Of a stretch of DNA of 64,000 nt, positions 30,359 to 50,958 are shown one piece after another. The notes below the pieces were generated by a model, which saw only the letters and a list, made by a program, of their open reading frames with translations, ran no database searches and was not told the DNA's origin. The stretch is taken from NCBI RefSeq assembly GCF_003334305.1, contig NZ_QOWS01000007.1. The stretch is one strand, 5' to 3'. Both the position numbers and the translations under genes were made by a program. The DNA is from Escherichia coli. Lineage in GTDB: Bacteria; Pseudomonadota; Gammaproteobacteria; Enterobacterales; Enterobacteriaceae. Within the stretch, counting starts at the first letter, position 1; each line of letters starts with the position of its first letter.

Positions 30359-31222
30359 TTAAATGCTTTTACCAAAAGTATTGCATTGTGCCGGATCGCC
30401 GCTGTCGAAACCACGTTTAAACCAGCTGTAGCGTTGCTGAGAAGTGCCATGTGTGAAACTATCTGGTACTACTCGCCCCTGACTTTGCTGTTGTAAACGG
30501 TCATCGCCGATGGCCTGCGCCGCGTTCAGCGCCTCTTCCAGATCGCCGGTTTCCAGAACGCCTTGCTGCTGCATGTTATGCCCCCAGACACCGGCAAAAC
30601 AGTCGGCCTGGAGTTCCATACGCACAGATAAGCGGTTCACTTCCGCCTGCGTCGCGTTTTGTTGCAGTTGACGAACTTTCGGCTCGATGCCTAACAGTTT
30701 CTGCACATGATGACCGACTTCATGGGCGATAACGTACCCCTGGGCAAAATCGCCATCCGCGCCAAGTTTGTCTTTCATGTCATCATAGAAGGAGAGATCG
30801 ATATAAACCGTGCCATCCGCCGGGCAATAGAACGGCCCCATTATGGACTGGCCCGCCCCGCATCCGGTACGCGTCATTCCACGGTACATGACCAGCTTCG
30901 GTTGCTGATAGGTCTTACCCATCTTCTCGAACTGTTGTCCCCAGGTGTCTTCCGTGGTTGCCAGAATCACCGAGGTGAATTTTGCGGCTTCGTCTTCATT
31001 AGGGCTAATTGACCGCGTTGATTGCTGTTGGGAAACCGGCTGCCCGGTCATCAACCCGGTTAAATCAACGCCATAGTAGCCTGCAACCAGCACGACTATC
31101 AGTAAAATCAGCCCGCCTTTACCGCTTGGCAGGCGAAAACCGGGACCGCCCATAGACGGACCACCAGAGCTGTTGCGCCTGTCTTCAACATTGTCACTTT
31201 CACGTCGTCCTTGCCAACGCAT
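30359..31222 (-). CDS. ypfJ: Putative zinc metalloprotease YpfJ (HExxH)
   Basis: 287-aa ORF with HEVGHHVQ motif and N-terminal TM segment, recognised YpfJ. Confidence 0.9.
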
Positions 31223-31368
31223 AGATACCTCAACAATATATTCATTATAGAAATGATCGTAGGTGGTTCAGAGGAAGATTACCACAGGAAAGCGGGATGA
31301 AATGGCGGAGGAATTAAGGCTTCATGCCACGTTATATAATTTACGAATGTTAGAAGTAAAAGAGAATG

Positions 31369-31767
31369 TTAGCTCCAATCTTCTAGTCTGATTCCCGCCA
31401 CTCGCTCAAACTCTCGGGTATTGTTGGTAACCACAATCAAACCGCGACTGCGAGCATGTCCCGCTATCATCTGGTCAAAAGGTCCAACAGGCCTTCCCTG
31501 CCGGGCAAGCTCGGCCCTGATTTGCCCGGTATGCGTCGCAGCAGCACTATCATAATCAAGCACTTCCAAACGAGATACGAAACCTTCAATCACCGCCAAA
31601 TTGCGTTCTGGCATCTGACTTTTTTCTGCCCCATAGATAAGCTCCATCAATGTTACAGAACTTATACACATCCGGCCAGAATTCAGGTTAAACCGCTCTC
31701 TGACATGTACTGGTTTATTCTTAATAGTGAAAATACAGATATTGGTATCCAGCATGAATTTCAGCAT
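31369..31767 (-). CDS. vapC: PIN-domain ribonuclease toxin, VapC family (closest recalled relatives Shigella MvpA / Salmonella VapC, which cleave initiator tRNA-fMet)
   Basis: 132-aa ORF beginning MLKFMLDTNICIF with conserved PIN acidic residues; near-identical in my recollection to enterobacterial VapC/MvpA; 1-nt ATGA overlap with the upstream antitoxin ORF. Confidence 0.85.
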   Translation of the reverse strand: MLKFMLDTNICIFTIKNKPVHVRERFNLNSGRMCISSVTLMELIYGAEKSQMPERNLAVIEGFVSRLEVLDYDSAAATHTGQIRAELARQGRPVGPFDQMIAGHARSRGLIVVTNNTREFERVAGIRLEDWS

Positions 31768-31994
31768 CAGAATGATTCCCTTTCCTGCATTGCGGGTTGA
31801 TCACGGATATCCATAAAATCCGCACTCACATTTTCGCCATCAAACCAACTGTCCCAGGACTCACCGGCGGGAGTGATGATTCTTGTACGACCAATCGCAA
31901 TAATTTCTACTTTCTTAACATCCTCTGGCAGAGCGACCGCTTTCGGTAATCTGACGGCCTGACTGCGATTACTTAAAAATACAGTAGTTTCCAT
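31767..31994 (-). CDS. vapB: VapB-type antitoxin (AbrB/SpoVT/MazE swapped-hairpin DNA-binding domain)
   Basis: Track ORF is 88 aa; start chosen at METTVFLSNRSQAVRLPKAV (75 aa), preceded by a G-rich SD; stop overlaps the vapC start. Confidence 0.8.
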   Translation of the reverse strand: METTVFLSNRSQAVRLPKAVALPEDVKKVEIIAIGRTRIITPAGESWDSWFDGENVSADFMDIRDQPAMQERESF

Positions 31995-32060
31995 AGCCCC
32001 CCCTTTTTTGGGATATACGTCATGTATATACATATTGGCCTGTTATTACTTTCCTGTCAA
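31995..32060 (-). promoter_or_regulatory. Putative vapBC promoter/operator
   Basis: On the minus strand ttgaca (-35-like) precedes a 12-bp perfect palindrome atgtatatacat and tatac direct repeats directly upstream of the vapB start. Confidence 0.4.
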
Positions 32061-34125: not shown

Positions 34126-35004
34126 TTACAGCAAACCGGCATGCTTAAGCGCCGCTCTGACCGTCTCACGACCACTGTCGGTGATTGGTGTCATTGGCAG
34201 GCGCAGCGTATCGGTCGCCACAAGACCCAGTTCCTTACATGCCCATTTCACCGGGATTGGATTGGGTTCGACAAATAGTTTGTTGTGTAATGGCATCAGA
34301 CGCTGATTAATAACGCGTGCCTCGGCAAAATGCCCTTCTGCTGCCAGTTTGCACATCTGGGCCATATCACGCGCTGCGACGTTAGCCGTAACGGAAATAA
34401 CCCCATGACCGCCCAATTGCATGAAGTCCAGCGCGCTCGCATCATCGCCGCTCAGCAGAACAAAATCATCTGAAACCAGCTCTTTGATCTGGTTTACACG
34501 CGTTAAGTTCCCTGTTGCCTCTTTGATTCCGATAATATTTTTTACTTTCGCCAGACGGCCCACCGTTTCCGGGAGCAGATCGCAGCCAGTACGGGACGGC
34601 ACATTATACAGAATTTGCGGCAGGTCAGTATGCTCAGCGATGGCTTTGAAATGCTGATACAAACCTTCTTGCGACGGACGATTGTAGTAAGGGGTTACCG
34701 TCAGGCAGCCGACGATACCACTGTCATTGAAGCGCTGCGTCAGGCTAATGGCTTCCGCAGTAGCGTTAGCGCCGGTCCCGGCAATTACCGGAATGCGCCC
34801 ATCAGCCAGCTCCAGCGTCATCATCACCACATCAGCATGTTCGTCATGATTTAAGGTAGCGGACTCGCCAGTGGTGCCAACAGAAACGATCGCCGAAGTA
34901 CCGCTGGCGACATGATAATCAATCAGTTTTTTCAAGCTAGCCCGACAGACATTACCTTTTTCATCCATCGGAGTAACAATCGCGACAATACTTCCCGTGA
35001 ACAT
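34126..35004 (-). CDS. dapA: 4-hydroxy-tetrahydrodipicolinate synthase DapA
   Basis: Track ORF is 298 aa; start chosen at [17 protein letters not shown] (292 aa). Confidence 0.93.
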
Positions 35005-35149
35005 GGGCCATCCTCTGTGCAAACAAGTGTCTCAATGGTACGTTTGGTATGGCATTAAAAGCAAGCAGACAGAACCGTTCTGATTGTTGTATGCATGTTT
35101 TTTTTATGCTTTCCTTAAGAACAACTCACCCCTTAAAGGAATAACCAGT

Positions 35150-35722
35150 TTGACACTGTCATCGCAACATTATCTGGTGATCACTGCGTTGGGTGCCGAT
35201 CGCCCTGGAATTGTGAACACCATCACCCGTCATGTCAGTAGTTGCGGCTGTAATATTGAAGACAGTCGCCTGGCGATGCTGGGAGAAGAGTTCACGTTTA
35301 TTATGCTGCTTTCCGGTTCATGGAATGCCATTACTCTGATTGAATCAACGTTACCGTTGAAAGGTGCCGAACTGGATCTTTTAATCGTGATGAAGCGCAC
35401 GACGGCGCGTCCGCGTCCGCCAATGCCAGCATCTGTCTGGGTTCAGGTCGATGTGGCAGACTCCCCGCATTTAATTGAACGCTTCACAGCACTTTTCGAC
35501 GCGCATCATATGAACATTGCGGAGCTGGTGTCGCGCACGCAACCTGCTGAAAATGAACGGGCTGCGCAGTTGCATATTCAGATAACCGCCCACAGCCCCG
35601 CATCTGCGGACGCAGCAAATATTGAGCAAGCGTTCAAAGCCCTATGTACAGAACTCAATGCACAAGGCAGTATTAACGTCGTCAATTATTCCCAACATGA
35701 TGAACAGGATGGAGTTAAGTAA
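35150..35722 (+). CDS. gcvR: Glycine cleavage system transcriptional repressor GcvR
   Basis: Track ORF starts at TTG 35084; start chosen at in-frame TTG 35150 (MTLSSQHYLVITALGADRPG, 190 aa) with SD aagga upstream; ACT-domain protein. Confidence 0.82.
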   Translation: MTLSSQHYLVITALGADRPGIVNTITRHVSSCGCNIEDSRLAMLGEEFTFIMLLSGSWNAITLIESTLPLKGAELDLLIVMKRTTARPRPPMPASVWVQVDVADSPHLIERFTALFDAHHMNIAELVSRTQPAENERAAQLHIQITAHSPASADAANIEQAFKALCTELNAQGSINVVNYSQHDEQDGVK

Positions 35723-36192
35723 TGAATCCACTGAAAGCCGGTGATATCGCACCGAAATTTAGCTTGCCGGATCAAGACGGAGAACAAGTTAATTTGACCG
35801 ACTTCCAGGGACAGCGTGTTCTGGTTTATTTCTACCCGAAAGCCATGACCCCCGGCTGTACCGTACAGGCCTGCGGCTTACGCGATAACATGGATGAGTT
35901 GAAAAAAGCGGGCGTTGATGTGCTGGGTATCAGCACCGATAAACCCGAAAAACTCTCCCGTTTTGCGGAAAAAGAGCTGCTTAACTTTACGCTCCTGTCT
36001 GATGAGGACCACCAGGTGTGCGAACAATTCGGCGTCTGGGGTGAAAAGTCCTTCATGGGCAAAACCTACGATGGCATTCATCGCATCAGCTTCCTGATTG
36101 ACGCTGATGGCAAAATCGAACATGTCTTTGACGATTTCAAAACCAGCAATCACCACGACGTTGTGCTGAACTGGCTGAAAGAACACGCCTGA
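35722..36192 (+). CDS. bcp: Thiol peroxidase Bcp (peroxiredoxin)
   Basis: 156-aa ORF, recognised Bcp; start overlaps the gcvR stop. Confidence 0.93.
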   Translation: MNPLKAGDIAPKFSLPDQDGEQVNLTDFQGQRVLVYFYPKAMTPGCTVQACGLRDNMDELKKAGVDVLGISTDKPEKLSRFAEKELLNFTLLSDEDHQVCEQFGVWGEKSFMGKTYDGIHRISFLIDADGKIEHVFDDFKTSNHHDVVLNWLKEHA

Positions 36193-36387
36193 TTACTTTG
36201 CTCCATTCCGTGCTGGCTGCGCTTGCGGCCAGCATACCTCACTTCTCGTGATCAAGATCACATTCTCGCTTTCCCCTGCGACACGGGTGTCGAATCCATT
36301 TTTTGCTGAACGTTAATGACCATCATTTTTGTACCGTTCAGAATCCAGTCAATACATAACTTATTGAATATATTGAGTTAATCAGAA

Positions 36388-36403
36388 TGGCATCCTTTAT
36401 GCA
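36388..36403 (+). promoter_or_regulatory. Sigma54 (-24/-12) promoter of the hyf operon
   Basis: TGGCATcctttaTGCA has the GG-N10-GC spacing of the TGGCAC-N5-TTGCA consensus, about 40 bp upstream of the hyfA ATG; the sigma54 activator hyfR lies in the same operon. Confidence 0.55.
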
Positions 36404-36444
36404 ATATGAAATGCAATGTTTCATATCATTTTCAAGGAGCCGAC

Positions 36445-37062
36445 ATGAACCGCTTTGTGGTGGCCGAACCACTGTGGTGTACAGGATGTAATACCTGTCT
36501 CGCTGCCTGTTCGGACGTGCATAAAACGCAAGGTTTACAGCAACACCCGCGCCTGGCCCTGGCGAAGACGTCAACACTCACTGCCCCTGTCGTGTGTCAT
36601 CACTGTGAGGAAGCCCCTTGCCTGCAGGTCTGCCCGGTTAATGCCATCTCCCAGAGGGATGATGCGATCCAACTCAACGAAAGCCTCTGTATTGGCTGCA
36701 AGCTTTGCGCCGTGGTCTGCCCATTTGGCGCAATCAGCGCTTCAGGAAGCCGTCCGGTGAATGCCCCTGCGCAATATGTTTTTCAGGCTGAAGGCTCACT
36801 CAAAGACGGCGAAGAAAACGTGCCGCCCCAACATGCATTGCTGCGCTGGGAACCGGGTGTCCAGACCGTCGCGGTGAAATGCGACCTGTGTGATTTCTTG
36901 CCAGAAGGTCCGGCCTGCGTTCGCGCTTGCCCGAATCAGGCGTTACGGCTGATCACCGACGATAGCCTGCAACGACAGATGAAAGAAAAACAGCGCCTTG
37001 CCGCAAGCTGGTTTGCCAATGGCGGGGAGGATCCCCTTTCCCTCACTCAGGAGCAACGCTAA
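36445..37062 (+). CDS. hyfA: Hydrogenase-4 ferredoxin-type subunit HyfA
   Basis: Track ORF is 218 aa; start chosen at MNRFVVAEPLWCTGCNTC (205 aa); multiple 4Fe-4S Cys motifs. Confidence 0.9.
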   Translation: MNRFVVAEPLWCTGCNTCLAACSDVHKTQGLQQHPRLALAKTSTLTAPVVCHHCEEAPCLQVCPVNAISQRDDAIQLNESLCIGCKLCAVVCPFGAISASGSRPVNAPAQYVFQAEGSLKDGEENVPPQHALLRWEPGVQTVAVKCDLCDFLPEGPACVRACPNQALRLITDDSLQRQMKEKQRLAASWFANGGEDPLSLTQEQR

Positions 37063-39080
37063 TGGATGCCCTGCAATTATTAACCTGGTCGCTGATCCTC
37101 TATCTGTTTGCCAGTCTGGCTTCGCTGTTTTTACTCGGTCTGGACAGACTGGCTATTAAGCTTTCCGGCATCACATCGCTGGTGGGCGGCGTGATTGGCA
37201 TCATCAGCGGAATTACGCAATTACATGCTGGTGTAACTTTAGTCGCCCGTTTTGCCACCCCTTTTGACTTTGCCGATTTTACCCTGCGAATGGATAGCCT
37301 CTCGGCATTTATGGTGCTGGTTATCTCCTTGCTGGTGGTGGTTTGTTCGCTCTATTCATTGACTTATATGCGCGAATACGAGGGCAAAGGCGCGGCGGCG
37401 ATGGGCTTCTTTATGAATCTTTTCATCGCATCGATGGTTGCCCTGCTGGTGATGGACAACGCTTTTTGGTTCATCGTGCTGTTTGAAATGATGTCGCTGT
37501 CTTCCTGGTTTCTGGTCATTGCCAGGCAGGATAAAACGTCGATCAACGCTGGCATGCTCTACTTTTTTATCGCCCACGCCGGATCGGTGCTGATTATGAT
37601 CGCCTTCTTGCTGATGGGGCGCGAAAGCGGCAGCCTCGATTTTGCCAGTTTCCGCACGCTTTCACTTTCTCCGGGGCTGGCGTCGGCGGTGTTCCTGCTG
37701 GCCTTTTTCGGTTTTGGCGCGAAAGCCGGGATGATGCCGTTGCACAGCTGGTTGCCGCGCGCTCACCCTGCCGCACCATCGCACGCTTCGGCGTTGATGT
37801 CTGGCGTAATGGTCAAAATCGGTATTTTCGGCATCCTGAAAGTAGCGATGGACCTGCTGGCGCAAACGGGTTTGCCGCTGTGGTGGGGCATTCTGGTGAT
37901 GGCGATCGGCGCAATCTCCGCGCTCCTGGGCGTGCTGTATGCGCTGGCGGAACAGGATATCAAACGGCTGCTGGCCTGGAGTACCGTCGAAAACGTCGGC
38001 ATTATTTTGCTGGCAGTCGGTGTGGCGATGGTCGGTCTGTCACTGCACGACCCGCTGCTCACCGTGGTTGGACTGCTCGGCGCACTGTTTCATCTGCTCA
38101 ACCATGCGCTGTTCAAAGGGCTGCTATTTCTCGGCGCGGGCGCGATTATTTCGCGTTTGCATACCCACGACATGGAAAAAATGGGGGCACTGGCGAAACG
38201 GATGCCGTGGACAGCCGCAGCATGCCTGATTGGTTGCCTCGCGATATCAGCCATTCCTCCGCTGAATGGTTTTATCAGCGAATGGTACACCTGGCAGTCG
38301 CTGTTCTCACTAAGTCGTGTGGAAGCCGTAGCGCTACAACTTGCGGGTCCTATTGCTATGGTAATGCTGGCAGTCACTGGTGGGCTGGCAGTAATGTGCT
38401 TCGTAAAAATGTACGGTATTACTTTCTGTGGTGCGCCGCGCAGTACACACGCTGAAGAGGCACAGGAAGTGCCAAATACGATGATCGTCGCCATGCTACT
38501 GCTCGCGGCACTCTGCGTATTAATTGCGCTTAGTGCCAGTTGGCTGGCACCGAAGATAATGCATATTGCCCATGCGTTTACCAATACCCCTCCCGTCACT
38601 GTCGCCAGCGGAATAGCACTTGTACCCGGCACGTTTCATACACAGGTCACCCCCTCATTACTGTTGCTGTTACTACTGGCGATGCCTTTGCTGCCTGGCC
38701 TTTACTGGCTGTGGTGTCGTTCGCGCCGCGCAGCGTTTCGTCGCACAGGAGATGCCTGGGCATGCGGCTACGGCTGGGAAAATGCGATGGCCCCGTCAGG
38801 CAATGGCGTGATGCAGCCGCTGCGTGTGGTCTTCTCTGCGTTATTTCGTCTACGACAACAGCTCGACCCTACGCTGAGGCTAAATAAAGGTTTTGCGCAC
38901 GTCACCGCCAGGGCTCAGAGCACAGAACCCTTCTGGGATGAGCGGGTGATCCGCCCCATCGTGAGCGCCACCCAACGGCTGGCCAAAGAAATACAGCATC
39001 TGCAAAGCGGCGACTTTCGTCTCTATTGCCTGTATGTGGTCGCCGCACTGGTTGTGCTGCTAATCGCTATTGCCGTCTAA
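37062..39080 (+). CDS. hyfB: Hydrogenase-4 membrane subunit HyfB (NuoL/M/N antiporter-like)
   Basis: 672-aa polytopic ORF with WLPxAH...KRLLAWSTVEN motifs. Confidence 0.92.
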   Translation: MDALQLLTWSLILYLFASLASLFLLGLDRLAIKLSGITSLVGGVIGIISGITQLHAGVTLVARFATPFDFADFTLRMDSLSAFMVLVISLLVVVCSLYSLTYMREYEGKGAAAMGFFMNLFIASMVALLVMDNAFWFIVLFEMMSLSSWFLVIARQDKTSINAGMLYFFIAHAGSVLIMIAFLLMGRESGSLDFASFRTLSLSPGLASAVFLLAFFGFGAKAGMMPLHSWLPRAHPAAPSHASALMSGVMVKIGIFGILKVAMDLLAQTGLPLWWGILVMAIGAISALLGVLYALAEQDIKRLLAWSTVENVGIILLAVGVAMVGLSLHDPLLTVVGLLGALFHLLNHALFKGLLFLGAGAIISRLHTHDMEKMGALAKRMPWTAAACLIGCLAISAIPPLNGFISEWYTWQSLFSLSRVEAVALQLAGPIAMVMLAVTGGLAVMCFVKMYGITFCGAPRSTHAEEAQEVPNTMIVAMLLLAALCVLIALSASWLAPKIMHIAHAFTNTPPVTVASGIALVPGTFHTQVTPSLLLLLLLAMPLLPGLYWLWCRSRRAAFRRTGDAWACGYGWENAMAPSGNGVMQPLRVVFSALFRLRQQLDPTLRLNKGFAHVTARAQSTEPFWDERVIRPIVSATQRLAKEIQHLQSGDFRLYCLYVVAALVVLLIAIAV

Positions 39081-39090
39081 GGAAATCACC

Positions 39091-40038
39091 ATGAGACAAA
39101 CTCTTTGCGACGGATATCTGGTTATTTTTGCGTTAGCACAGGCCGTGATTCTGCTGATGCTAACCCCACTTTTTACGGGTATTTCCCGGCAGATACGCGC
39201 GCGTATGCACTCCCGCCGCGGGCCGGGGATCTGGCAGGATTATCGCGATATCCACAAACTGTTTAAACGCCAGGAAGTTGCGCCGACATCTTCAGGTCTG
39301 ATGTTCCGCCTGATGCCGTGGGTATTAATCAGCAGCATGCTGGTGCTGGCGATGGCCTTACCACTGTTTATTACCGTTTCCCCTTTTGCGGGCGGCGGCG
39401 ATCTGATCACCCTTATCTATCTTCTTGCCCTGTTTCGTTTTTTCTTTGCTCTTTCCGGGCTGGATACCGGAAGTCCGTTTGCGGGAGTCGGTGCCAGTCG
39501 CGAGTTGACGCTCGGCATTCTGGTCGAACCAATGCTTATTCTCTCACTGCTGGTATTGGCGCTGATAGCAGGTTCCACGCATATCGAGATGATCAGCAAT
39601 ACGCTGGCGATGGGCTGGAACTCGCCGCTAACCACCGTACTGGCGTTACTGGCCTGTGGTTTTGCCTGCTTCATTGAGATGGGAAAAATTCCCTTTGATG
39701 TTGCTGAAGCAGAACAGGAATTACAGGAAGGCCCGCTGACCGAATATTCCGGTGCCGGGCTGGCGCTAGCGAAATGGGGGCTGGGGCTGAAACAGGTCGT
39801 GATGGCATCACTGTTTGTGGCCCTGTTTCTGTCCTTTGGGCGCGCGCAAGAACTTTCTCTCGCCTGCCTGCTGACTTCACTTGTCGTTACGCTGCTCAAG
39901 GTTTTGCTGATTTTTGTACTGGCCTCAATCGCGGAAAACACGCTGGCACGCGGGCGTTTTTTACTCATTCACCATGTGACCTGGCTTGGCTTCAGCCTTG
40001 CTGCGCTTGCATGGGTCTTCTGGTTAACCGGTCTGTAA
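39091..40038 (+). CDS. hyfC: Hydrogenase-4 membrane subunit HyfC (NuoH-like)
   Basis: Track ORF is 322 aa; start chosen at MRQTLCDGYLVIFALAQ (315 aa). Confidence 0.9.
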   Translation: MRQTLCDGYLVIFALAQAVILLMLTPLFTGISRQIRARMHSRRGPGIWQDYRDIHKLFKRQEVAPTSSGLMFRLMPWVLISSMLVLAMALPLFITVSPFAGGGDLITLIYLLALFRFFFALSGLDTGSPFAGVGASRELTLGILVEPMLILSLLVLALIAGSTHIEMISNTLAMGWNSPLTTVLALLACGFACFIEMGKIPFDVAEAEQELQEGPLTEYSGAGLALAKWGLGLKQVVMASLFVALFLSFGRAQELSLACLLTSLVVTLLKVLLIFVLASIAENTLARGRFLLIHHVTWLGFSLAALAWVFWLTGL

Positions 40039-40054
40039 GGAGCACTGACGGAAT

Positions 40055-41285
40055 ATGGAAAATCTTGCTCTGACGACGTTAATGCTGCCTTTTATCGGCG
40101 CACTGGTCGTTTCGTTTTCGCCACAACGTCGGGCCGCCGAATGGGGGTTTTGTTCGCCGCACTGACCACGCTGTGCATGTTGTCGCTGATCTCCGCGTTT
40201 TATCAGGCCGATAAAGTTGCCGTCACGTTGACGTTGGTCAACGTGGGGGATGTGGCATTGTTTGGCCTGGTCATTGATCGCGTGAGTACGCTGATTCTGT
40301 TTGTGGTGGTGTTTCTCGGTTTGCTGGTCACGATCTACTCCACGGGTTATCTGACGGATAAAAATCGCGAACACCCGCATAACGGCACGAATCGTTATTA
40401 CGCATTTTTGCTGGTGTTTATCGGCGCGATGGCGGGACTGGTACTCTCCTCGACGCTGCTCGGTCAGTTGTTGTTTTTTGAAATTACGGGCGGCTGCTCC
40501 TGGGCGTTGATCAGTTATTACCAGAGCGATAAAGCGCAGCGTTCAGCACTAAAAGCGTTGCTTATCACCCATATCGGTTCGTTGGGGTTGTATCTTGCCG
40601 CCGCCACGCTGTTTTTGCAGACCGGAACGTTTGTGCTTAGCGCGATGAGCGAGTTACATGGCGACGCACGTTATCTGGTTTATGGCGGCATCCTGTTTGC
40701 CGCGTGGGGGAAATCGGCCCAGCTACCGATGCAAGCGTGGCTACCGGACGCAATGGAAGCGCCAACACCGATCAGCGCCTATCTCCACGCCGCATCGATG
40801 GTGAAAGTGGGCGGCTGGCACTGGAGGGCAGCATCGCCTACATCGTCAACCACGCGTTCGCTAAAAGCCTGTTTTTCCTTGTAGCAGGTGCGCTGAGTTA
40901 CAGCTGCGGCACGCGCTTATTGCCGCGTCTGCGTGGCGTATTGCACACCCTGCCGTTGCCAGGCGTGGGTTTCTGCGTGGCAGCGCTGGCGATTACCGGT
41001 GTGCCGCCGTTCAACGGCTTCTTCAGTAAATTCCCGCTGTTTGCCGCCGGTTTTGCGTTGTCAGTGGAGTACTGGATCCTGCTGCCCGCCATGATTCTGC
41101 TGATGATTGAATCGGTCGCCAGTTTCGCCTGGTTTATTCGCTGGTTTGGTCGCGTTGTGCCTGGCAAACCGAGCGAGGCCGTCGCCGATGCCGCACCGCT
41201 GCCAGGGTCAATGCGCCTGGTGTTGATTGTACTGATTGTGATGTCGCTGATTTCCAGCGTAATCGCCGCGACCTGGTTGCAGTAA
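40055..41285 (+). pseudogene. hyfD: hyfD, hydrogenase-4 NuoL/M/N-like membrane subunit, disrupted by frameshift plus internal deletion
   Basis: Reading frame opens at ATG 40055 (MENLALTTLMLPFIGALVVSFSPQRRAAEW), hits a stop after 36 codons, resumes in another frame (track ORF 40141..40884) and again in a third frame (40704..41285); the conserved D-x-KRLLA-x-S motif present in hyfB and hyfF is absent; total span 1231 nt against about 1440 nt recalled for intact hyfD. Confidence 0.75.
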
Positions 41286-41296
41286 GGAGATGATGA

Positions 41297-41947
41297 ATGA
41301 CCGGTTCTATGATCGTAAATAATCTGGCGGGACTGATGATGCTGACATCGCTGTTTGTGATTAGCGTCAAAAGCTATCGCCTGTCATGCGGATTTTACGC
41401 CTGCCAGTCGCTGGTGCTGGTGTCTATTTTCGCCACTCTCTCGTGCCTGTTCGCCGCAGAGCAACTGCTGATCTGGTCCGCCAGCGCCTTTATCACCAAA
41501 GTGCTGCTGGTACCGTTAATCATGACTTACGCTGCACGAAATATTCCCCAGAACATCCCGGAAAAAGCGTTATTCGGTCCGGCAATGATGGCACTGCTCG
41601 CGGCGTTAATTGTCCTGCTTTGCGCATTTGTCGTTCAGCCCGTGAAGCTACCGATGGCTACCGGGCTGAAACCGGCGCTGGCGGTAGCGTTAGGTCATTT
41701 TCTGCTTGGCCTGCTGTGCATTGTCAGCCAGCGCAATATCCTGCGGCAAATTTTTGGTTACTGCCTGATGGAAAACGGCTCCCATCTGGTGCTGGCGCTT
41801 CTTGCCTGGCGAGCACCGGAACTGGTGGAAATAGGTATCGCTACCGACGCCATCTTCGCCGTCATTGTGATGGTGTTACTGGCAAGAAAAATATGGCGTA
41901 CCCACGGCACGCTGGACGTGAACAACTTGACCGCGCTGAAGGGATAA
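41297..41947 (+). CDS. hyfE: Hydrogenase-4 membrane subunit HyfE
   Basis: 216-aa hydrophobic ORF, recognised HyfE. Confidence 0.9.
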
Positions 41948-41951
41948 TGAG

Positions 41952-43532
41952 ATGAGTTATTCTGTGATGTTCGCTTTACTCCTGCTCACGCCGCTGCTTT
42001 TTTCGCTGCTCTGTTTTGCCTGCCGGAAACGGGGGCTCTCTGCGACTTGTACGGTGACTGTATTACATAGCTTAGGGATCACACTGCTGCTGATTCTGGC
42101 ACTCTGGGTGGTCCAAACTGCCGCTGATGCAGGAGAAATATTCGCTGCGGGACTGTGGCTTCATATTGATGGTCTGGGCGGTTTGTTCCTCGCCATTCTT
42201 GGTGTGATTGGCTTTCTCACCGGTGTTTACTCGATTGGCTACATGCGTCATGAAGTGGCACACGGCGAGCTTTCACCCGTTACACTGTGCGATTACTACG
42301 GTTTCTTCCATCTGTTTTTGTTCACCATGCTGCTGGTTGTTACCAGCAATAACCTGATTGTGATGTGGGCGGCGATCGAAGCCACCACCTTAAGCTCGGC
42401 GTTTCTGGTAGGCATTTACGGTCAGCGTTCATCGCTGGAATCAGCATGGAAGTACATCATTATTTGTACTGTTGGTGTCGCTTTTGGTCTGTTCGGTACC
42501 GTGCTGGTATACGCCAACGCCGCCAGCGTTATGCCGCAGGCAGAAATGGCGATATTCTGGAGCGAGGTTCTTAAGCAATCGTCCTTGCTTGACCCAACAT
42601 TAATGCTGTTGGCCTTTGTGTTTGTGCTAATTGGCTTTGGTACCAAAACCGGGCTATTTCCCATGCACGCCTGGCTGCCGGATGCTCACAGTGAAGCGCC
42701 GAGTCCGGTCAGCGCCCTGCTCTCCGCCGTATTGCTGAACTGCGCGCTGTTGGTGCTGATTCGCTATTACATCATTATTTGCCAAGCCATCGGCAGCGAT
42801 TTCCCCAACCGGTTGTTGCTCATCTTCGGCATGTTGTCGGTTGCCGTGGCGGCATTTTTCATTCTGGTACAGCGGGACATTAAGCGTCTGCTGGCGTACT
42901 CCAGCGTGGAGAACATGGGGCTGGTCGCGGTGGCGCTAGGCATTGGCGGGCCGCTGGGAATTTTTGCCGCGCTGCTGCACATCTTAAACCACAGTCTGGC
43001 AAAAACGCTGCTGTTCTGCGGTTCCGGCAATGTACTGCTCAAGTACGGCACGCGCGATCTCAACGTCGTCTGTGGGATGCTCAAAATCATGCCATTTACC
43101 GCCGTGCTGTTTGGCGGCGGTGCGCTGGCGCTGGCAGGGATGCCGCCCTACAACATTTTTCTTAGCGAATTTATGACCATTACCGCCGGACTGGCACGTA
43201 ATCACCTGCTGATTATCGTCCTGCTGTTATTGCTGTTAACGCTGGTGCTGGCGGGCCTGGTACGGATGGCAGCGCGGGTGTTAATGGCGAAACCGCCGCA
43301 GGCCGTTAACCGGGGTGATCTCGGCTGGTTGACCACCTCGCCAATGGTGATTCTGCTGGTCATGATGCTGGCGATGGGAACGCATATTCCACAACCTGTC
43401 ATCAGGATCCTGGCGGGCGCTTCCACTATAGTCCTCTCAGGGACGCACGACCTGCCTGCACAACGTAGCACCTGGCATGATTTTTTGCCTTCAGGCACCG
43501 CATCTGTTTCGGAGAAACACAGTGAACGTTAA
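41952..43532 (+). CDS. hyfF: Hydrogenase-4 membrane subunit HyfF (NuoL/M/N antiporter-like)
   Basis: 526-aa polytopic ORF with [17 protein letters not shown] and [11 protein letters not shown] motifs. Confidence 0.92.
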
Positions 43533-45237
43533 TTCATCGTCAAATCGTGGCGAAGCGATTCTCGCCGCCCTGAAAACGCAGTTCCCCGGCGCGGTGCTGG
43601 ATGAAGAGCGACAAACGCCTGAACAGGTCACCATTACGGTGAAAATCAATCTGCTGCCTGACGTTGTACATTATCTTTATTATCAACATGATGGCTGGCT
43701 TCCAGTCCTGTTTGGCAACGACGAGCGGACACTTAACGGTCATTACGCGGTTTATTATGCCCTTTCAATGGAAGGGGCCGAAAAATGCTGGATCGTGGTG
43801 AAGGCACTGGTCGATGCCGACAGTCGGGAGTTTCCGTCAGTCACACCGCGCGTCCCTGCCGCGGTCTGGGGCGAGCGAGAAATTCGCGATATGTACGGGC
43901 TGATTCCGGTTGGCCTGCCGGATCAGCGTCGCCTGGTGTTGCCCGATGACTGGCCGGAAGATATGCATCCGCTGCGCAAAGATGCGATGGATTATCGACT
44001 GCGCCCTGAACCGACGACAGATTCCGAAACGTATGCGTTTATCAATGAGGGCAACAGCGATGCGCGGGAGATCCCTGTCGGCCCGCTGCATATCACCTCC
44101 GATGAACCGGGTCACTTCCGCTTGTTTGTGGATGGCGAGCAAATTGTCGATGCTGATTACCGCCTGTTTTATGTCCATCGCGGCATGGAGAAACTGGCAG
44201 AAACGCGGATGGGCTACAACGAAGTGACCTTCTTATCGGACCGCGTGTGTGGGATTTGCGGTTTTGCCCACAGTGTGGCCTATACCAATTCGGTTGAAAA
44301 TGCACTGGGGATTGAGGTGCCGCAACGAGCACATACTATTCGCTCGATTCTGCTGGAAGTCGAACGGCTACACAGTCATTTGCTTAACCTTGGCCTCTCC
44401 TGCCATTTCGTTGGTTTTGATACCGGCTTTATGCAATTTTTCCGCGTGCGGGAAAAGTCGATGACGATGGCGGAATTGCTGATCGGGTCGCGTAAAACCT
44501 ACGGTCTGAATCTGATTGGTGGTGTTCGCCGCGATATTCTCAAAGAGCAACGTCTGCAAACGCTGAAACTGGTGCGCGAGATGCGCGCCGACGTGTCGGA
44601 GCTGGTAGAGATGCTGCTTGCCACGCCGAATATGGAACAACGCACTCAGGGCATTGGCATTCTCGACCGACAAATCGCCCGTGATTATAGCCCTGTAGGG
44701 CCGCTGATCCGCGGCAGTGGTTTTGCCCGTGATTTGCGCTTTGATCACCCCTACGCCGACTACGGCAATATTCCAAAAACACTGTTTACCTTTACCGGCG
44801 GCGATGTTTTCTCCCGCGTGATGGTCCGTGTCAAAGAGACGTTTGATTCGCTGGCAATGCTGGAATTTGCCCTCGACAACATGCCGGATACCCCACTGCT
44901 GACCGAAGGCTTTAGCTATAAACCTCACGCATTCGCGCTGGGCTTTGTTGAAGCGCCACGCGGTGAAGACGTGCACTGGAGCATGCTCGGTGATAACCAA
45001 AAATTGTTCCGCTGGCGCTGCCGTGCCGCCACCTACGCCAACTGGCCGGTGTTGCGTTACATGCTGCGCGGCAATACCGTTTCTGACGCACCGCTGATTA
45101 TCGGTAGCCTTGATCCCTGCTACTCCTGTACCGACCGTGTGACGCTGGTAGATGTGCGCAAGCGCCAGTCAAAAACCGTGCCGTATAAAGAGATCGAACG
45201 CTACGGCATTGATCGTAACCGTTCGCCGCTGAAGTAA
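43522..45237 (+). CDS. hyfG: Hydrogenase-4 large [NiFe] subunit HyfG (NuoC/D-like)
   Basis: Track ORF 43477..45237; start tentatively placed at GTG 43522 ([10 protein letters not shown]) with ggaga SD 6 nt upstream; CxxC Ni-binding motifs ([19 protein letters not shown]); exact start uncertain. Confidence 0.85.
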
Positions 45238-45246
45238 GGACAGAAG

Positions 45247-45786
45247 ATGCTGAAGTTACTGAAAACTATTATGCGCGCCGGAACCGCGACGGTGAAATAT
45301 CCCTTCGCGCCACTGGAGGTCAGCCCAGGCTTTCGCGGGAAACCGGACCTGATGCCCAGCCAATGTATTGCCTGCGGCGCCTGTGCTTGTCCGGCAAATG
45401 CGCTGACTATCCAGACCGACGACCAGCAAAATTCGCGCACCTGGCAGCTCTATCTGAGGCGTTGTATTTACTGCGGACGTTGTGAAGAAGTGTGCCCGAC
45501 CAGAGCCATCCAGCTTACCAATAACTTTGAACTGACCGTCACCAATAAAGCCGATCTCTATACCCGCGCGACGTTCCATCTACAACGTTGCAGCCGTTGC
45601 GAACGCCCGTTTGCCCCGCAAAAAACCGTCGCACTGGCTGCTGAATTGTTGGCACAGCAACAAAATGCGCCACAAAACCGCGAAATGTTGCGGGCGCAAG
45701 CGAGCGTCTGCCCGGAGTGCAAACAACGCGCGACGCTGATCAACGACGATACAGATGTACCGCTGGTGGCTAAGGAGCAGCTATGA
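45247..45786 (+). CDS. hyfH: Hydrogenase-4 ferredoxin-type subunit HyfH
   Basis: 179-aa ORF with two CxxCxxCxxxCP motifs. Confidence 0.9.
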
Positions 45787-46541
45787 GTCCAGTGCTTACA
45801 CAACATGTCAGCCAGCCCATCACGCTGAACGAGCAAACGCAAAAGATGAAGCGGCATTTGCTACAGGATATCCGTCGCTCGGCTTACGTTTATCGCGTCG
45901 ATTGCGGCGGCTGCAACGCCTGTGAAATCGAAATTTTTGCTGCCATCACACCCGTATTCGACGCAGAACGTTTTGGCATTAAGGTTGTTTCATCACCGCG
46001 TCACGCCGATATTTTGTTATTTACTGGCGCAGTCACCCGGGCGATGCGTATGCCTGCACTTCGGGCGTATGAGTCTGCCCCCGATCATAAAATCTGTGTT
46101 TCCTACGGCGCGTGCGGTGTCGGCGGCGGTATTTTCCACGATCTCTACAGCGTCTGGGGCGGCAGCGACACCATTGTCCCCATTGATGTTTGGATCCCCG
46201 GCTGCCCGCCAACACCGGCCGCCACCATTCACGGTTTCGCCGTGGCGCTCGGTTTGCTGCAACAGAAGATTCACGCTGTGGATTATCGCGATCCCACCGG
46301 GGTGACTATGCAACCGCTGTGGCCGCAAATCCCGCCATCACAACGTATCGCCATTGAGCGAGAAGCGCGGCGGCTGGCGGGCTATCGTCAGGGGCGAGAA
46401 ATTTGCGATCGGCTCCTGCGCCATTTAAGCGACGATCCTACAGGAAATCGGGTTAACACCTGGTTGCGCGATGCCGACGATCCACGTCTCAATAGTATCG
46501 TTCAGCAACTCTTTCGCGTACTCCGGGGGTTACATGACTGA
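45783..46541 (+). CDS. hyfI: Hydrogenase-4 small subunit HyfI (NuoB-like)
   Basis: 252-aa ORF with CGGCNACE and GCPP motifs. Confidence 0.9.
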
Positions 46542-46947
46542 AGAGTGCGGGGAAATTGTTTTCTGGACGCTGCGAAAAAAGTTTGTCGCCAGTAGCGACG
46601 AGATGCCGGAACACAGCTCTCAGGTAATGTATTACTCGCTGGCTATCGGTCATCACGTTGGCGTGATTGATTGTCTGAATGTCGCCTTCCGCTGCCCACT
46701 GACGGAATACGAAGATTGGCTTGCACTGGTCGAAGAGGAACAAGCCCGACGTAAGATGCTGGGGGTGATGACTTTTGGTGAGATTGTTATTGACGCCAGC
46801 CACACCGCCCTGTTGACCCGGGCATTCGCGCCACTGGCAGATGACGCGACGTCTGTGTGGCAGGCGCGTAGCATTCAATTCATTCATCTGTTGGATGAAA
46901 TTGTGCAGGAACCGGCCATCTATCTGATGGCCAGAAAAATTGCGTGA
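46534..46947 (+). CDS. hyfJ: Hydrogenase-4 component HyfJ (HycH-like maturation factor)
   Basis: Track ORF is 158 aa; start chosen at [17 protein letters not shown] (137 aa), overlapping the hyfI stop. Confidence 0.85.
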
Positions 46948-46976
46948 GAAGGATTTCTCATTAATAAGGACTGTTG

Positions 46977-48989
46977 ATGGCTATGTCAGACGAGGCGATG
47001 TTTGCCCCGCCACAAGGAATAACAATTGAAGCGGTAAACGGAATGCTCGCGGAGCGGTTAGCACAGAAACACGGTAAGGCGTCTTTATTACGCGCCTTCA
47101 TCCCGATGCCGCCGCCGTTCAGCCCGGTACAACTTATTGAACTGCATGTTCTCAAAAGCAACTTCTATTACCGCTACCATGATGATGGCAGCGATGTGAC
47201 GGCAACAACAGAGTATCAGGGCGAGATGGTCGATTATTCGCGTCACGCCGTCCTTCTCGGCAGTAGTGGAATGGCGGAGCTACGCTTTATTCGCACCCAC
47301 GGCAGCCGTTTTACTCCCCAGGATTGCACACTGTTTAACTGGCTGGCGCGGATAATCACCCCGGTTCTGCAATCATGGCTCAATGATGAAGAACAGCAGG
47401 TGGCGCTGCGTTTGCTGGAGAAAGATCGCGATCATCATCGGGTACTGGTTGATATTACTAATGCAGTGCTGTCACATCTTGATCTCGACGATCTGATCGC
47501 TGACGTCGCTCGTGAGATCCATCATTTTTTCGGTCTGGCTTCAGTCAGTATGGTACTGGGCGATCATCGAAAGAACGAGAAGTTTAGCCTGTGGTGCAGC
47601 GATCTTTCTGCCTCACATTGTGCGTGTCTGCCACGCAATATGCCTGGCGACAGTGTATTGCTGACACAAACGCTACAAACCCGACAACCGACCTTGACGC
47701 ACCGTGCAGACGATCTGTTTCTCTGGCAACGCGACCCGTTATTACTCTTACTTGCATCTAACGGCTGCGAATCTGTGCTCCTTATACCGCTTACCTTTGG
47801 CAACCATACACCGGGTGCATTGTTGCTGGCGCATACCTCTTCCACTCTCTTTAGTGAGGAAAACTGCCAGCTACTACAACACATAGCCGATCGCATCGCT
47901 ATTGCCGTTGGCAATGCCGATGCCTGGCGTAGCATGACCGATTTGCAGGAAAGTTTGCAGCAAGAAAACCACCAGCTTAGCGAGCAGCTCCTTTCGAATC
48001 TGGGCATCGGTGACATTATCTATCAAAGCCAGGCAATGGAAGACCTGCTCCAGCAGGTAGATATTGTGGCGAAGAGCGACAGTACGGTGTTGATTTGCGG
48101 TGAAACCGGAACCGGCAAAGAGGTGATCGCCAGAGCGATCCATCAACTTAGCCCGCGACGCGACAAGCCGCTGGTCAAAATCAACTGCGCTGCCATCCCC
48201 GCCAGTCTTCTGGAAAGTGAGTTATTCGGTCATGACAAAGGGGCGTTTACTGGTGCGATTAATACCCATCGTGGTCGTTTTGAAATTGCCGATGGCGGCA
48301 CGTTGTTTCTCGATGAAATTGGCGATCTGCCGTTAGAACTTCAGCCTAAACTGCTGCGCGTATTGCAGGAACGGGAGATTGAGCGTCTCGGCGGGAGTAG
48401 AACGATCCCGGTAAATGTCAGAGTCATTGCCGCCACCAACCGTGATTTGTGGCAAATGGTTGAAGATCGCCAGTTTCGCAGCGATCTCTTTTATCGCCTG
48501 AATGTCTTCCCACTGGAATTGCCGCCGCTGCGCGACCGTCCGGAAGATATCCCTCTTTTAGCAAAGCATTTCACGCAAAAAATGGCGCGCCATATGAATC
48601 GTTCAATTGACGCCATCCCGACCGAGGCGCTACGCCAGTTGATGTCGTGGGACTGGCCGGGCAACGTGCGCGAGCTGGAAAACGTGATTGAGCGAGCGGT
48701 ACTGCTGACTCGCGGTAACAGTCTGAATTTACATCTTAATGTCCGACAAAGCCGTTTACTGCCGACGCTAAATGAAGATTCAGCGCTTCGCAGTTCAATG
48801 GCGCAGTTGCTGCACCCGACGACGCCAGAGAATGACGAAGAAGAACGTCAGCGCATTGTTCAGGTATTGCGAGAAACCAATGGCATTGTTGCCGGGCCCC
48901 GTGGCGCGGCGACACGATTAGGGATGAAGCGCACCACGCTGCTGTCACGAATGCAGCGTCTGGGAATCTCGGTTCGCGAGGTGTTGTAA
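46977..48989 (+). CDS. hyfR: Sigma54-dependent transcriptional activator HyfR (FhlA-like; GAF, AAA+ and HTH domains)
   Basis: 670 aa from the second Met; AAA+ Walker A GETGTGKE and GAFTGA sigma54-contact motif. Confidence 0.9.
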
Positions 48990-49010
48990 TCTGCTTTTGC
49001 AGGAGTATGC

Positions 49011-49859
49011 ATGAGAAACAAACTCTCTTTCGACTTGCAGTTGAGCGCCAGAAAAGCGGCAATCGCTGAACGGATTGCTGCCCATAAAATTGCCCGCAGT
49101 AAAGTGTCGGTCTTTTTAATGGCGATGTCCGCTGGCGTGTTTATGGCGATCGGATTTACTTTTTACCTTTCAGTTATCGCCGATGCCCCGTCTTCACAGG
49201 CATTAACCCATCTGGTGGGCGGCCTTTGCTTTACACTTGGCTTTATTTTGCTGGCGGTTTGCGGCACCAACCTGTTCACCTCGTCGGTAATGACGGTAAT
49301 GGCAAAAAGTCGGGGCGTTATTAGTTGGCGAACTTGGCTGATTAACGCACTTCTGGTGGCCTGCGGTAATCTGGCAGGTATTGCCTGTTTCAGTTTGTTA
49401 ATCTGGTTTTCCGGGCTGGTGATGAGTGAAAACGCGATGTGGGGAGTCGCGGTTTTACACTGCGCCGAGGGCAAAATGCATCATACATTTACTGAATCTG
49501 TCAGCCTCGGCATTATGTGCAATCTGATGGTTTGCCTGGCGCTGTGGATGAGTTATTGCGGGCGTTCGTTATGCGACAAAATCGTCGCCATGATTTTGCC
49601 CATCACCCTGTTTGTCGCCAGTGGCTTTGAGCACTATATCGCCAATTTGTTTGTGATTCCGTTCGCCATTGCCATTCGCCATTTCGCCCCTACCTCCTTC
49701 TGGCAACTGGCGCACAGTAGCGCAGACAATTTTCCGGCACTGACGGTCAGCCATTTTATTACCGCCAATCTGCTCCCGGTGATGCTGGGTAATATTATCG
49801 GCGGTGCAGTGCTGGTGAGTATTTGTTATCGGGCTATTTATTTACGTCAGGAATCCTGA
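49011..49859 (+). CDS. focB: Formate channel FocB (FNT family)
   Basis: 282-aa polytopic ORF, recognised FocB. Confidence 0.92.
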   Translation: MRNKLSFDLQLSARKAAIAERIAAHKIARSKVSVFLMAMSAGVFMAIGFTFYLSVIADAPSSQALTHLVGGLCFTLGFILLAVCGTNLFTSSVMTVMAKSRGVISWRTWLINALLVACGNLAGIACFSLLIWFSGLVMSENAMWGVAVLHCAEGKMHHTFTESVSLGIMCNLMVCLALWMSYCGRSLCDKIVAMILPITLFVASGFEHYIANLFVIPFAIAIRHFAPTSFWQLAHSSADNFPALTVSHFITANLLPVMLGNIIGGAVLVSICYRAIYLRQES

Positions 49860-49864
49860 AAAAT

Positions 49865-49892
49865 CAGCCCGGCGAAACAGTTCGTCGGGCTG
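49865..49892. terminator. Bidirectional terminator hairpin between convergent focB and perM
   Basis: cagcccggcgaaacagttcgtcgggctg stem-loop between the two stop codons. Confidence 0.55.
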
Positions 49893-49896
49893 AAGA

Positions 49897-50958
49897 TTAT
49901 TCTTGCGCGATTTGCCCATCGGGCCAGGCGTGGATCACGGCTTTGATCAGCGTCGCCAATGGAATGGCGAAGAATACGCCCCAGAATCCCCACAAACCAC
50001 CGAAGATCACCACCGATAAAATAATCACCAGCGGATGCAGGTTAACCGCTTCGGAGAACAACACCGGTACTAGCAGGTTGCCGTCCAGCGCCTGAATAAT
50101 CAGATACACCGCGAAGCAGCTCCAGAATTCCGTGCCTGCGCCAAACTGGAATAGCGCCACGCCAACCACCGGAATGGTCACCACAAATGCGCCAATGTAC
50201 GGAATAAGAACCGAGAAGCCGACCAGCACCGCCAGCAGCAGCGAATAGTTCAGCCCAAAGAGCAAGAACCCCAGCCAGGTGGCGATCCCCACCACGATCA
50301 TCTCCAGCACTTTGCCGCGGATATAGTTGGTGATTTGTTGATTCATCTCCTTCCACACCTGTCCTGCCAGTCCACGGTTGCGCGGCAGCACCCGACGAAC
50401 GGCGTTCAGCATCTGCTCTTTGTCTTTCAGCAGGAAGAAGACCATCAATGGCACCAGCACCAGATAGACGGCAATGGTCAGCAAACCGACCAGCGAGGCG
50501 AGGGAAATTTTCACCACCGAATCGCCCATGGTCAGCATCCGACTGCGCATATTTTCGGCCATTGCATCAATAATGCCCGCGTCCATTAACGCCGGATAGC
50601 GACGCGGCAACGTGGCGGCAAAGTCAGAAAGCTTATTGAGCATCCCCGGCATATCGCGGATTAAGTAGATGCCCTGTTGCCAGGCGATAGGCAGTACCAC
50701 GAACGCCATCAGTAGCAATATACCGACAAAAACCACCAATACAATCGACGTCGCCCAGCGGCGGGAGCAGCCAATAGATTGCAGGCGCACGGTTGGCCAT
50801 TCCAGCAAATAGGCCAGCACAATAGCCACCAGCAACGGAGCAAGCAGGCCACTAAAGAAAAAGATAATGCCAAATCCGGCAACTAAAATAACCAGCAAGG
50901 CAATCGCTTCCGGGTCGCTAAAACGGCGGCGATACCATTGCATCAACATTTCGAGCAT
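49897..50958 (-). CDS. perM: AI-2E family transporter PerM (YfgO)
   Basis: 353-aa polytopic ORF, recognised PerM. Confidence 0.9.
   Translation of the reverse strand: MLEMLMQWYRRRFSDPEAIALLVILVAGFGIIFFFSGLLAPLLVAIVLAYLLEWPTVRLQSIGCSRRWATSIVLVVFVGILLLMAFVVLPIAWQQGIYLIRDMPGMLNKLSDFAATLPRRYPALMDAGIIDAMAENMRSRMLTMGDSVVKISLASLVGLLTIAVYLVLVPLMVFFLLKDKEQMLNAVRRVLPRNRGLAGQVWKEMNQQITNYIRGKVLEMIVVGIATWLGFLLFGLNYSLLLAVLVGFSVLIPYIGAFVVTIPVVGVALFQFGAGTEFWSCFAVYLIIQALDGNLLVPVLFSEAVNLHPLVIILSVVIFGGLWGFWGVFFAIPLATLIKAVIHAWPDGQIAQE

Follow-up and report, generated by a model that had tools for sequence, protein, structure and literature searches.

The −24/−12 element that lies upstream of hyfA at 36388-36403 is, in all likelihood, hyfAp, the known sigma-54 (RpoN)-dependent promoter of the Escherichia coli hydrogenase-4 operon; it is an already characterised promoter and not a novel one. 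We uphold this identity because sigma-54 binds the identical sequence in K-12 and because the site is conserved in both position and strand. The K-12 hydrogenase-4 operon is reportedly transcribed from a sigma-54 promoter of that name.

The hyf locus

The stretch of DNA analysed here, 64,000 nucleotides in length and referred to as the window, carries the E. coli gene order gcvR-bcp-hyfABC(D*)EFGHIJ-hyfR-focB. Positions 35000-51000 are collinear with the K-12 arrangement gcvR-bcp-hyfABCDEFGHIJ-hyfR-focB / yfgO at roughly 99% identity, and bcp followed by hyfA to focB is the gene series annotated in E. coli genomes. The spacer between bcp and hyfA is 252 nt long and is 100% identical to that of many complete E. 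coli genomes. Its one difference from K-12 is at 36350, where the window has C and K-12 has T, in a non-conserved column. The structural genes hyfABCDEFGHIJ are driven by the sigma-54 promoter at 36388-36403, and the features that delimit the spacer and the operon are as follows.

36210-36235, plus strand: strong GC-rich hairpin just 3′ of bcp (RNA fold; inverted repeat)
36434-36439, plus strand: Shine-Dalgarno sequence AAGGAG of hyfA (direct reading; CAAGGAGCC kept across genera)
36445-46947, plus strand: structural genes hyfABCDEFGHIJ (open reading frames; collinear with annotated E. coli hyf operons at about 99% identity)

The start codon of hyfA is the ATG at 36445, and the annotated HyfA protein of 205 aa begins at the equivalent position. 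The listed open reading frame for this gene opens earlier, at an in-frame ATG at 36406. The hairpin 3′ of bcp folds at −20.9 kcal/mol (z = −5.15, with 0 of 200 shuffles as good) and is likely a terminator or stabiliser of the bcp transcript that bounds the hyf regulatory region on its upstream side. E. coli variants in the stem of this hairpin are C-to-T changes. An Rfam search of 35700-37100 found nothing relevant.

Sequence and binding of the −24/−12 element

Positions 36380-36445 read aatcagaaTGGCATCCTTTATGCAatatgaaatgcaatgtttcatatcattttcAAGGAGccgacATG. On the plus strand of this segment, TGGCATCCTTTATGCA occupies 36388-36403 and is composed of TGGCAT (36388-36393), a 6-nt spacer (36394-36399) and TGCA (36400-36403), with exactly 10 nt between the GG at 36389-36390 and the GC at 36401-36402. 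This is the GG/GC spacing of a sigma-54 promoter (consensus TGGCAC-N5-TTGCW), and the element, written as TGGCAT-CCTTT-ATGCA, has one mismatch to TGGCA-N6-TTGCW. It ends 41 nt before the hyfA ATG; the initial annotation had described a TGGCAT-N6-TGCA sequence with GG-N10-GC spacing about 40 bp upstream of hyfA, and the element is found just there.

36387-36403, plus strand: sigma-54 −24/−12 element ATGGCATCCTTTATGCA (motif, matrix score, identity to K-12 and conservation)
36414-36415, plus strand: expected transcription start (36414 by a published prediction rule, 36415 by a reported primer extension; conserved AAYGTTT here)

The 17-mer ATGGCATCCTTTATGCA at 36387-36403 matches ChIP-seq site OS23 of K-12 at every position; OS23 is listed with the motif ATGGCATCCTTTATGCA, hyfA as the downstream gene and a FAT of 16, and is flagged ‘C’ for experimentally confirmed in EcoCyc (Bonocora et al., 2015; PMC4591121). 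The bcp/hyfA spacer is also among the strongest genomic SELEX peaks of the RpoN holoenzyme, at 92% with the holoenzyme alone and as the 100% reference peak with NtrC (Shimada et al., PMC8743547). The sigma-54 identity that had been proposed for the promoter is therefore borne out by the match to OS23 and by the strength of the SELEX peak.

Transcription from sigma-54 promoters starts about 12 nt after the GC. By primer extension the start reportedly lies 30 bp before hyfA, corresponding to 36415 here, and the offsets of all elements below are given relative to that position. Counting 19 nt onwards from the motif centre, as in the published prediction, gives 36414, 31 nt 5′ of hyfA (PMC4591121). 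A consensus scan detected no sigma-70-like promoter on the sense strand of the bcp-hyfA spacer, and a sigma-70 promoter was rejected since the sole consensus match in the spacer lies on the minus strand.

Motif statistics and conservation across genera

The bare motif is not beyond chance in 64 kb, and it is position and conservation that set the hyfA site apart. The window holds a single exact TGGCAT-N6-TGCA match (0.41 expected), 30 of 100 shuffles contain at least one, and a looser consensus yields 17 matches against 14.4 expected in the 64-kb window. Sites were also scored with a sigma-54 weight matrix built from 41 published intergenic-sense ChIP-seq sites, with hyfA left out (Bonocora et al., 2015; PMC4591121). 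The hyfA site scores 13.6 bits and ranks second of about 128,000 positions in the window. Roughly 2.8 matches as good as this are expected in random 64 kb, which is why the motif by itself does not exceed chance. The training sites span 8.9 to 21.8 bits and 5 of the 41 fall below the hyfA site, so its score is comparable with those of validated sites. Within the 252-nt bcp-hyfA spacer, read on the sense strand, the chance expectation computed from the matrix rate is about 0.005. The top matrix match in the window lies inside hyfF (42996-43012) and is identical in K-12; it is absent from the published high-stringency sigma-54 ChIP-seq sites.

Conservation was assessed in species-representative genomes, where a HyfA scan recovered 45 loci, ranging from Citrobacter to Burkholderiaceae, of which 43 were usable. 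The scan returned no Escherichia loci, perhaps because the representatives of that genus happen to lack hyf, and variation within E. coli was sampled from a separate set of E. coli genomes. Of the 43 hyfA-type genes, all from other genera, 26 have a sense-strand site of 12 bits or more in the 300 nt ahead of them, and in all but one of these 26 the site ends 38-83 nt from the start codon (136 nt in the exception, locus L039). Sites of that score were found neither on the antisense strand (0/43) nor in 300-nt coding controls (0/43). Citrobacter carries ATGGCATCCTTTGTGCA at a distance from hyfA equal to that in E. coli.

When the Escherichia, Citrobacter and Kosakonia spacers are aligned, islands of identity appear amid diverged sequence. 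These are the CRP palindrome at 36247-36262, CGACAC..TGYCG at 36279-36292, TGACCATCAYTTTTGT at 36317-36332, TAAC..TTGA at 36357-36369, the −24/−12 element itself, AAYGTTT at the start site and the ribosome-binding site. Within E. coli, alleles that are 93-97% identical over a 211-nt query of the promoter region have no substitutions in the CRP site, the upstream repeat, the block at 36317-36332 or the −24/−12 element, the changes falling between them, and the cores of the IHF-like site are kept as well. Blocks that persist while the surrounding spacer diverges indicate purifying selection.

Elements upstream of the promoter

Four elements can be placed between the hairpin and the promoter, the first three of them without an assigned strand.

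36247-36262: CRP site CGTGATCAAGATCACA, centre at about −160.5 from the transcription start
36278-36293: candidate HyfR/FhlA upstream activating sequence (UAS), inverted repeat GCGACA-CGGG-TGTCGA (GCGACACGGGTGTCGA), centre at about −129.5
36317-36332: conserved block TGACCATCATTTTTGT, −98 to −83
36357-36369, minus strand: IHF-like site, ATTCAATAAGTTA against the consensus WATCAANNNNTTR, centre at about −52

The CRP site, cGTGA-TCAAGA-TCACA, agrees with TGTGA-N6-TCACA at 9 of 10 consensus positions, and its half-sites do not vary among Escherichia, Citrobacter and Kosakonia. The identical 16-mer CGTGATCAAGATCACA is listed for hyfA among the CRP ChIP-seq sites of ETEC H10407 (PMC4287617), and genomic SELEX recovered hyfA, already known as a CRP target (PMC3105977).

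The inverted repeat GCGACACGGGTGTCGA has one mismatch to TCGWCA-N4-TGWCGA, and the window has no second site of this kind. Allowing up to one mismatch, this pattern, which was derived post hoc from the very sequences then counted, is present in 27 of 32 sigma-54-bearing hyfA-type upstream regions; the corresponding figures are 0 of 31 for coding controls and 0.2% for shuffles. Activator sites of sigma-54 promoters lie about 80-150 nt ahead of the promoter. The repeat lies 99-101 nt before the −24 element in four genera, and a one-mismatch copy of the pattern is found upstream of fdhF in K-12. From this conservation, 36278-36293 is a probable HyfR/FhlA binding site. The published 14-nt FhlA matrix (PMC7658346) gives the CRP site 9.6 bits and the inverted repeat a lower 5.6 bits, neither being prominent among its matches across the window. 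Its best match in the spacer, the CRP site, ranks 41st in the window, so the matrix provides no discrimination. A terminator at 36279-36292 was rejected, as the repeat folds weakly as RNA (−4.9 kcal/mol, z = 0.44) and the real hairpin is the one at 36210-36235.

The block at 36317-36332 is invariant in Escherichia, Citrobacter and Kosakonia save for one Y position, and is invariant among the divergent E. coli alleles. The block TGACCATCAYTTTTGT (−98 to −83) could conceivably be the site of an undescribed regulator. The block resembles TCGACATCAT of the hyc-hyp UAS region, a likeness only. The IHF-like site agrees with WATCAANNNNTTR at 8 of 9 specified positions by direct reading, and its TAAC and TTGA cores are kept across the three genera. 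At sigma-54 promoters IHF usually sits between the UAS and the promoter, as the IHF-like site does here.

Comparison with K-12 and with related promoters

Relative to hyfAp of K-12, the 17-mer ATGGCATCCTTTATGCA, the CRP site, the UAS repeat, the block at 36317-36332, the IHF-like site and the distance to hyfA are all identical, and the gene order is the same. The differences are the substitution at 36350, the hyfD pseudogene, a 571-aa hyfG and a hyfH that is 6 bp shorter. Since the whole regulatory region departs from K-12 only at the one non-conserved base, the earlier description of an intact promoter beside a broken hyfD is correct.

The promoters of hycA, hypA, fdhF and hydN, which are listed as confirmed sigma-54 sites (PMC4591121), have the −24/−12 architecture in common with hyfA, along with an FhlA-family activator and upstream repeats of the CGACA/TGTCG type. 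Unlike these members of the E. coli formate regulon, hyf has ATGCA in place of the consensus TTGCA in its −12 region, and its own paralogous activator, HyfR, which falls below the FhlA equivalog cut-off. Whereas the hyc-hyp region contains several CGACA-type repeats, hyf has a single inverted repeat together with a CRP site. Among related genera, the regions from Providencia, Morganella and Pectobacterium carry −24/−12 sites and mostly the TCGWCA-N4-TGWCGA repeat, as here; however, the spacing between the UAS and the promoter is 56-69 nt in Providencia and Morganella compared with about 100 nt here, and neither the CRP site nor the block at 36317-36332 was seen in the regions of the three genera. 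In Proteus and Pectobacterium the operon specifies an active Hyd-4 together with a protease of its own (HyfK or HycI).

The hyfD lesion and decay of the hyf operon

40055-41285, plus strand: hyfD pseudogene (1-bp deletion near 40142 and 208-bp deletion near 40810, relative to K-12)

The 1-bp deletion in hyfD falls in a G-run, shifts the frame after residue 31 and leads to a stop at codon 37. An identical allele occurs in at least 15 complete genomes of E. coli; other E. coli genomes, such as that of strain H15, annotate it as a ‘frameshifted’ pseudogene. A 1,261-nt query resolved the allele, whereas an 80-nt query spanning the deletion junction did not, since intact hyfD matched in two pieces ranks just as high. 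In the window hyfG is the long allele, encoding the full-length 571 aa, whereas K-12 hyfG has an in-frame deletion that removes 16 conserved residues. The hyfI gene is frameshifted in strain E2865, and hyf is absent from approximately 1,130 of 5,426 complete E. coli genomes, about a fifth. The K-12 operon has been reported as poorly expressed or ‘silent’, with no Hyd-4 activity even when driven by the Phyc or T5 promoters.

In Pectobacterium, H2 production is not reduced by deletion of hyfDEF (PMC7384014), and so the loss of HyfD need not abolish function. Transcription of the operon described here would give at best a HyfD-less complex, and with a recent lesion it is no surprise that the promoter next to a dead hyfD is intact. 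One could go further and propose that the regulatory region is under purifying selection because a HyfD-less hydrogenase-4 is still useful, that the ‘silent’ K-12 operon reflects a strain-specific defect, and that naturally occurring alleles of this kind produce a trimmed but active Hyd-4 from hyfAp; we regard this as quite improbable. The observations behind it are the Pectobacterium hyfDEF deletion and the retention here, unlike in K-12, of the 571-aa HyfG.

HyfR and the proposed mechanism of activation

46977-48989, plus strand: hyfR, intact, encoding a 670-aa sigma-54 enhancer-binding protein (Pfam domains and GAFTGA)

The product of hyfR contains a GAF domain at residues 169-311 (E = 6e-13), a Sigma54_activat domain (PF00158) at 347-513 (E = 8.3e-75) followed by an AAA lid, and a weak HTH_8 match at 621-661 (E = 8.6e-4); GAFTGA is present in the translation. 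Its best NCBIfam match is FhlA (NF011958, an equivalog), at 644 bits against a cut-off of 830, with the alignment running from profile position 134 onwards. The protein at 46977-48989 is the paralogue HyfR, not FhlA, and is without the N-terminal extension of the latter. An FhlA-like activator with GAFTGA had been described at the end of the operon, and this is what the gene encodes. The further proposal of the initial annotation, that the promoter is paired with this in-operon activator, holds with three caveats: HyfR is indeed intact and FhlA-like, but FhlA also activates hyf, hyfR and focB may be transcribed separately, and CRP is a further input.

At the promoter, RNA polymerase carrying sigma-54 would form a closed complex on the −24 GG and −12 GC at 36388-36403, where binding has been shown for the identical K-12 sequence. 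A sigma-54 closed complex is unable to open DNA alone. An AAA+ activator of the FhlA family, HyfR and/or FhlA, would bind about 100 nt upstream, most likely at 36278-36293 to judge from cross-species conservation, and a bend at the IHF-like site (36357-36369) may then bring it to the polymerase. The GAFTGA loop of the activator would contact sigma-54, and ATP hydrolysis would convert the closed complex to an open one, with transcription predicted to start at about 36414-36415; both the GAFTGA contact and ATP-driven opening are established for the enhancer-binding family. CRP at 36247-36262 would add catabolite control, its binding having been detected by ChIP-seq in another E. coli strain.

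Alternative explanations

The element could in principle be a chance match without promoter function, given that about 2.8 equally good matrix matches are expected in random 64 kb and that the loose pattern is hardly enriched (17 against 14.4). However, the identical sequence is bound by sigma-54 both in vivo and in vitro, and other genera keep its position and strand, with 0/43 in each control. Published binding and the conservation test together in effect refute the chance reading, and the probability left to it is negligible. Another objection is that the site binds sigma-54 but is a relic that no longer supports useful expression, in an operon decaying in E. coli, and that its conservation reflects recent common ancestry, not selection. 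The hyfD pseudogene here and in other strains, the hyfI frameshift in E2865, the 16 conserved residues missing from K-12 HyfG and the loss of hyf from about 1,130 of 5,426 complete genomes all point that way, as does the description of the operon as ‘silent’, strong promoters having given no activity in K-12. Yet in E. coli alleles of 93-97% identity every substitution lies outside the CRP site, the UAS, the block at 36317-36332 and the −24/−12 element, with the IHF-like cores also kept, and the same blocks are retained in Citrobacter and Kosakonia despite a diverged spacer. Moreover, the Pectobacterium hyfDEF deletion without H2 loss argues that the hyfD lesion need not kill the enzyme. On this evidence a relic seems unlikely.

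The alternative that we take most seriously, while holding it to be slightly short of probable, accepts the promoter as real and assigns its physiological activation to FhlA, not to the in-operon HyfR; hyfR-focB would form a separate unit, leaving no self-contained pair or positive feedback loop. FhlA is encoded elsewhere, with the hyp genes. Expression of a hyfA-lacZ fusion is said to depend on both sigma-54 and FhlA, and a chromosomal hyfR knockout reportedly had no effect on it. No hyfJ-hyfR RT-PCR product was reportedly obtained, from which it follows that hyfR-focB may be a separate transcript. Against this, purified HyfR is said to bind the promoter region, and overexpressed HyfR reportedly induces hyf about 1000-fold, its effect being described as strong only upon overexpression; hyfJ and hyfR are also separated by just 29 nt, in which no terminator is evident. 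The motif represented by the repeat at 36278-36293 likewise lies upstream of the FhlA-dependent fdhF. PMC7658346 states that transcription of E. coli hyc and hyf is FhlA-activated and RpoN-dependent, and reporter assays in the same work demonstrate that the hyf promoter of Proteus mirabilis requires RpoN and FhlA (PMC7658346). In Pectobacterium atrosepticum, by contrast, FHL-2 activity is HyfR-dependent and is nearly abolished by deletion of hyfR (PMC7384014). Activation by FhlA refines the identification of the element as hyfAp and does not replace it.

Implications

As hyfAp, the element belongs to the roughly 20 sigma-54 promoters of E. coli with experimental confirmation listed in EcoCyc, and a true sigma-54 promoter could thus be recovered by a reader from sequence alone. 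The outcome of the analysis is an annotated regulatory map of the region upstream of hyfA, comprising a CRP site, a candidate activator repeat, an IHF-like site and one unexplained conserved block. Decay of the hyf operon, in the form of the hyfD pseudogene, the K-12 hyfG deletion and loss of the operon from about a fifth of genomes, may bear on the fact that Hyd-4 of K-12 has never been shown to be active.

Sequence upstream of hyfA

Two features lie between bcp and the sigma-54 promoter of hyfA:

36317-36332, conserved block of 16 nt (TGACCATCATTTTTGT) spanning -98 to -83 relative to the expected transcription start
36210-36235, very stable hairpin beginning 18 nt past the bcp stop codon (-20.9 kcal/mol, z = -5.15)

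The block is unchanged in Escherichia, Citrobacter and Kosakonia as well as in divergent E. coli alleles, and it bears a loose likeness to TCGACATCAT in the UAS region of hyc-hyp. The hairpin lacks an adjoining T-run, and the variants of its stem found among E. coli are C-to-T changes. A variant of the promoter itself occurs in E. coli Res13-Lact-PEB14-36, where a 14-bp tandem duplication (CATCCTTTATGCAA) is located at the -12 element (locus positions about 200-230). The first TGGCATCCTTTATGCA copy is still intact in this allele, and the start region and hyfA are displaced 14 nt farther.

Other sigma-54-like motifs

Further sigma-54-like motifs were found in the window, three of them within the hyf operon and with the GG-N10-GC spacing (scores from a weight matrix of 41 published intergenic ChIP-seq sites, hyfA left out):

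42996-43012, + strand, CTGGCAAAAACGCTGCT, inside hyfF, 13.9 bits
48798-48814, + strand, ATGGCGCAGTTGCTGCA, in the 3'-terminal part of hyfR, some 200 nt upstream of focB, 13.1 bits
46857-46873, + strand, GTGGCAGGCGCGTAGCA, a weaker motif within hyfJ, roughly 100 nt upstream of hyfR, beneath the lowest entry of the matrix listing (under 11.2 bits)
20909-20925, - strand, AAGGTACAATTTATGCA, inside narQ, antisense

None of the three hyf motifs is among the high-stringency ChIP-seq sites of K-12, and the hyfR motif differs from the K-12 sequence. The narQ motif appears to correspond to IA19, a published intragenic antisense sigma-54 ChIP-seq site, which in K-12 reads ACGGTACAATTTATGCA, one base apart from the window; this positional match was derived from locus offsets only. 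The position of the narQ site also suggests, indirectly, that the window carries a putative insertion relative to K-12, similar in size to the vapBC toxin-antitoxin pair that strain E2865, whose hyf promoter is identical to that of the window, has between ypfJ and purC (11221-11846 of that locus). By offset alone, the E2865 segment would be placed at about 31000-32000 of the window.

Loss and decay of hyf in E. coli

The hyf operon appears to be decaying in E. coli by several independent routes. When complete E. coli genomes were queried with window segments 36150-36500, 36240-36450 and 40040-41300, roughly 1,130 of 5,426 matched in the bcp part only, the hyf promoter and genes being missing. 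In the window, hyfD (40055-41285) has been damaged twice independently: 1 bp is lost from a G-run near 40142, and 208 bp are missing near 40810. Exactly the same allele is present in at least 15 complete E. coli genomes from varied hosts. In strain E2865 it is hyfI that is frameshifted.

A long hyfG allele

The window hyfG (43522-45237) contains 48 bp, at 44677-44724, that are absent from K-12 hyfG and are bordered on both sides by a 10-bp direct repeat, GCCCGTGATT. Across this stretch the 571-aa HyfG of the window and HycE in the FHL-1 structure (7z0s) can be aligned without a gap, so K-12 hyfG carries an in-frame 16-aa deletion, with loss of a conserved VGPxxRxSG stretch. Of 4,295 complete E. 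coli genomes that contain hyfG, about half (2,180) possess the long form. We found no mention of the K-12 deletion in the literature within reach; it might be relevant to the ‘silent’ state of Hyd-4 in K-12.
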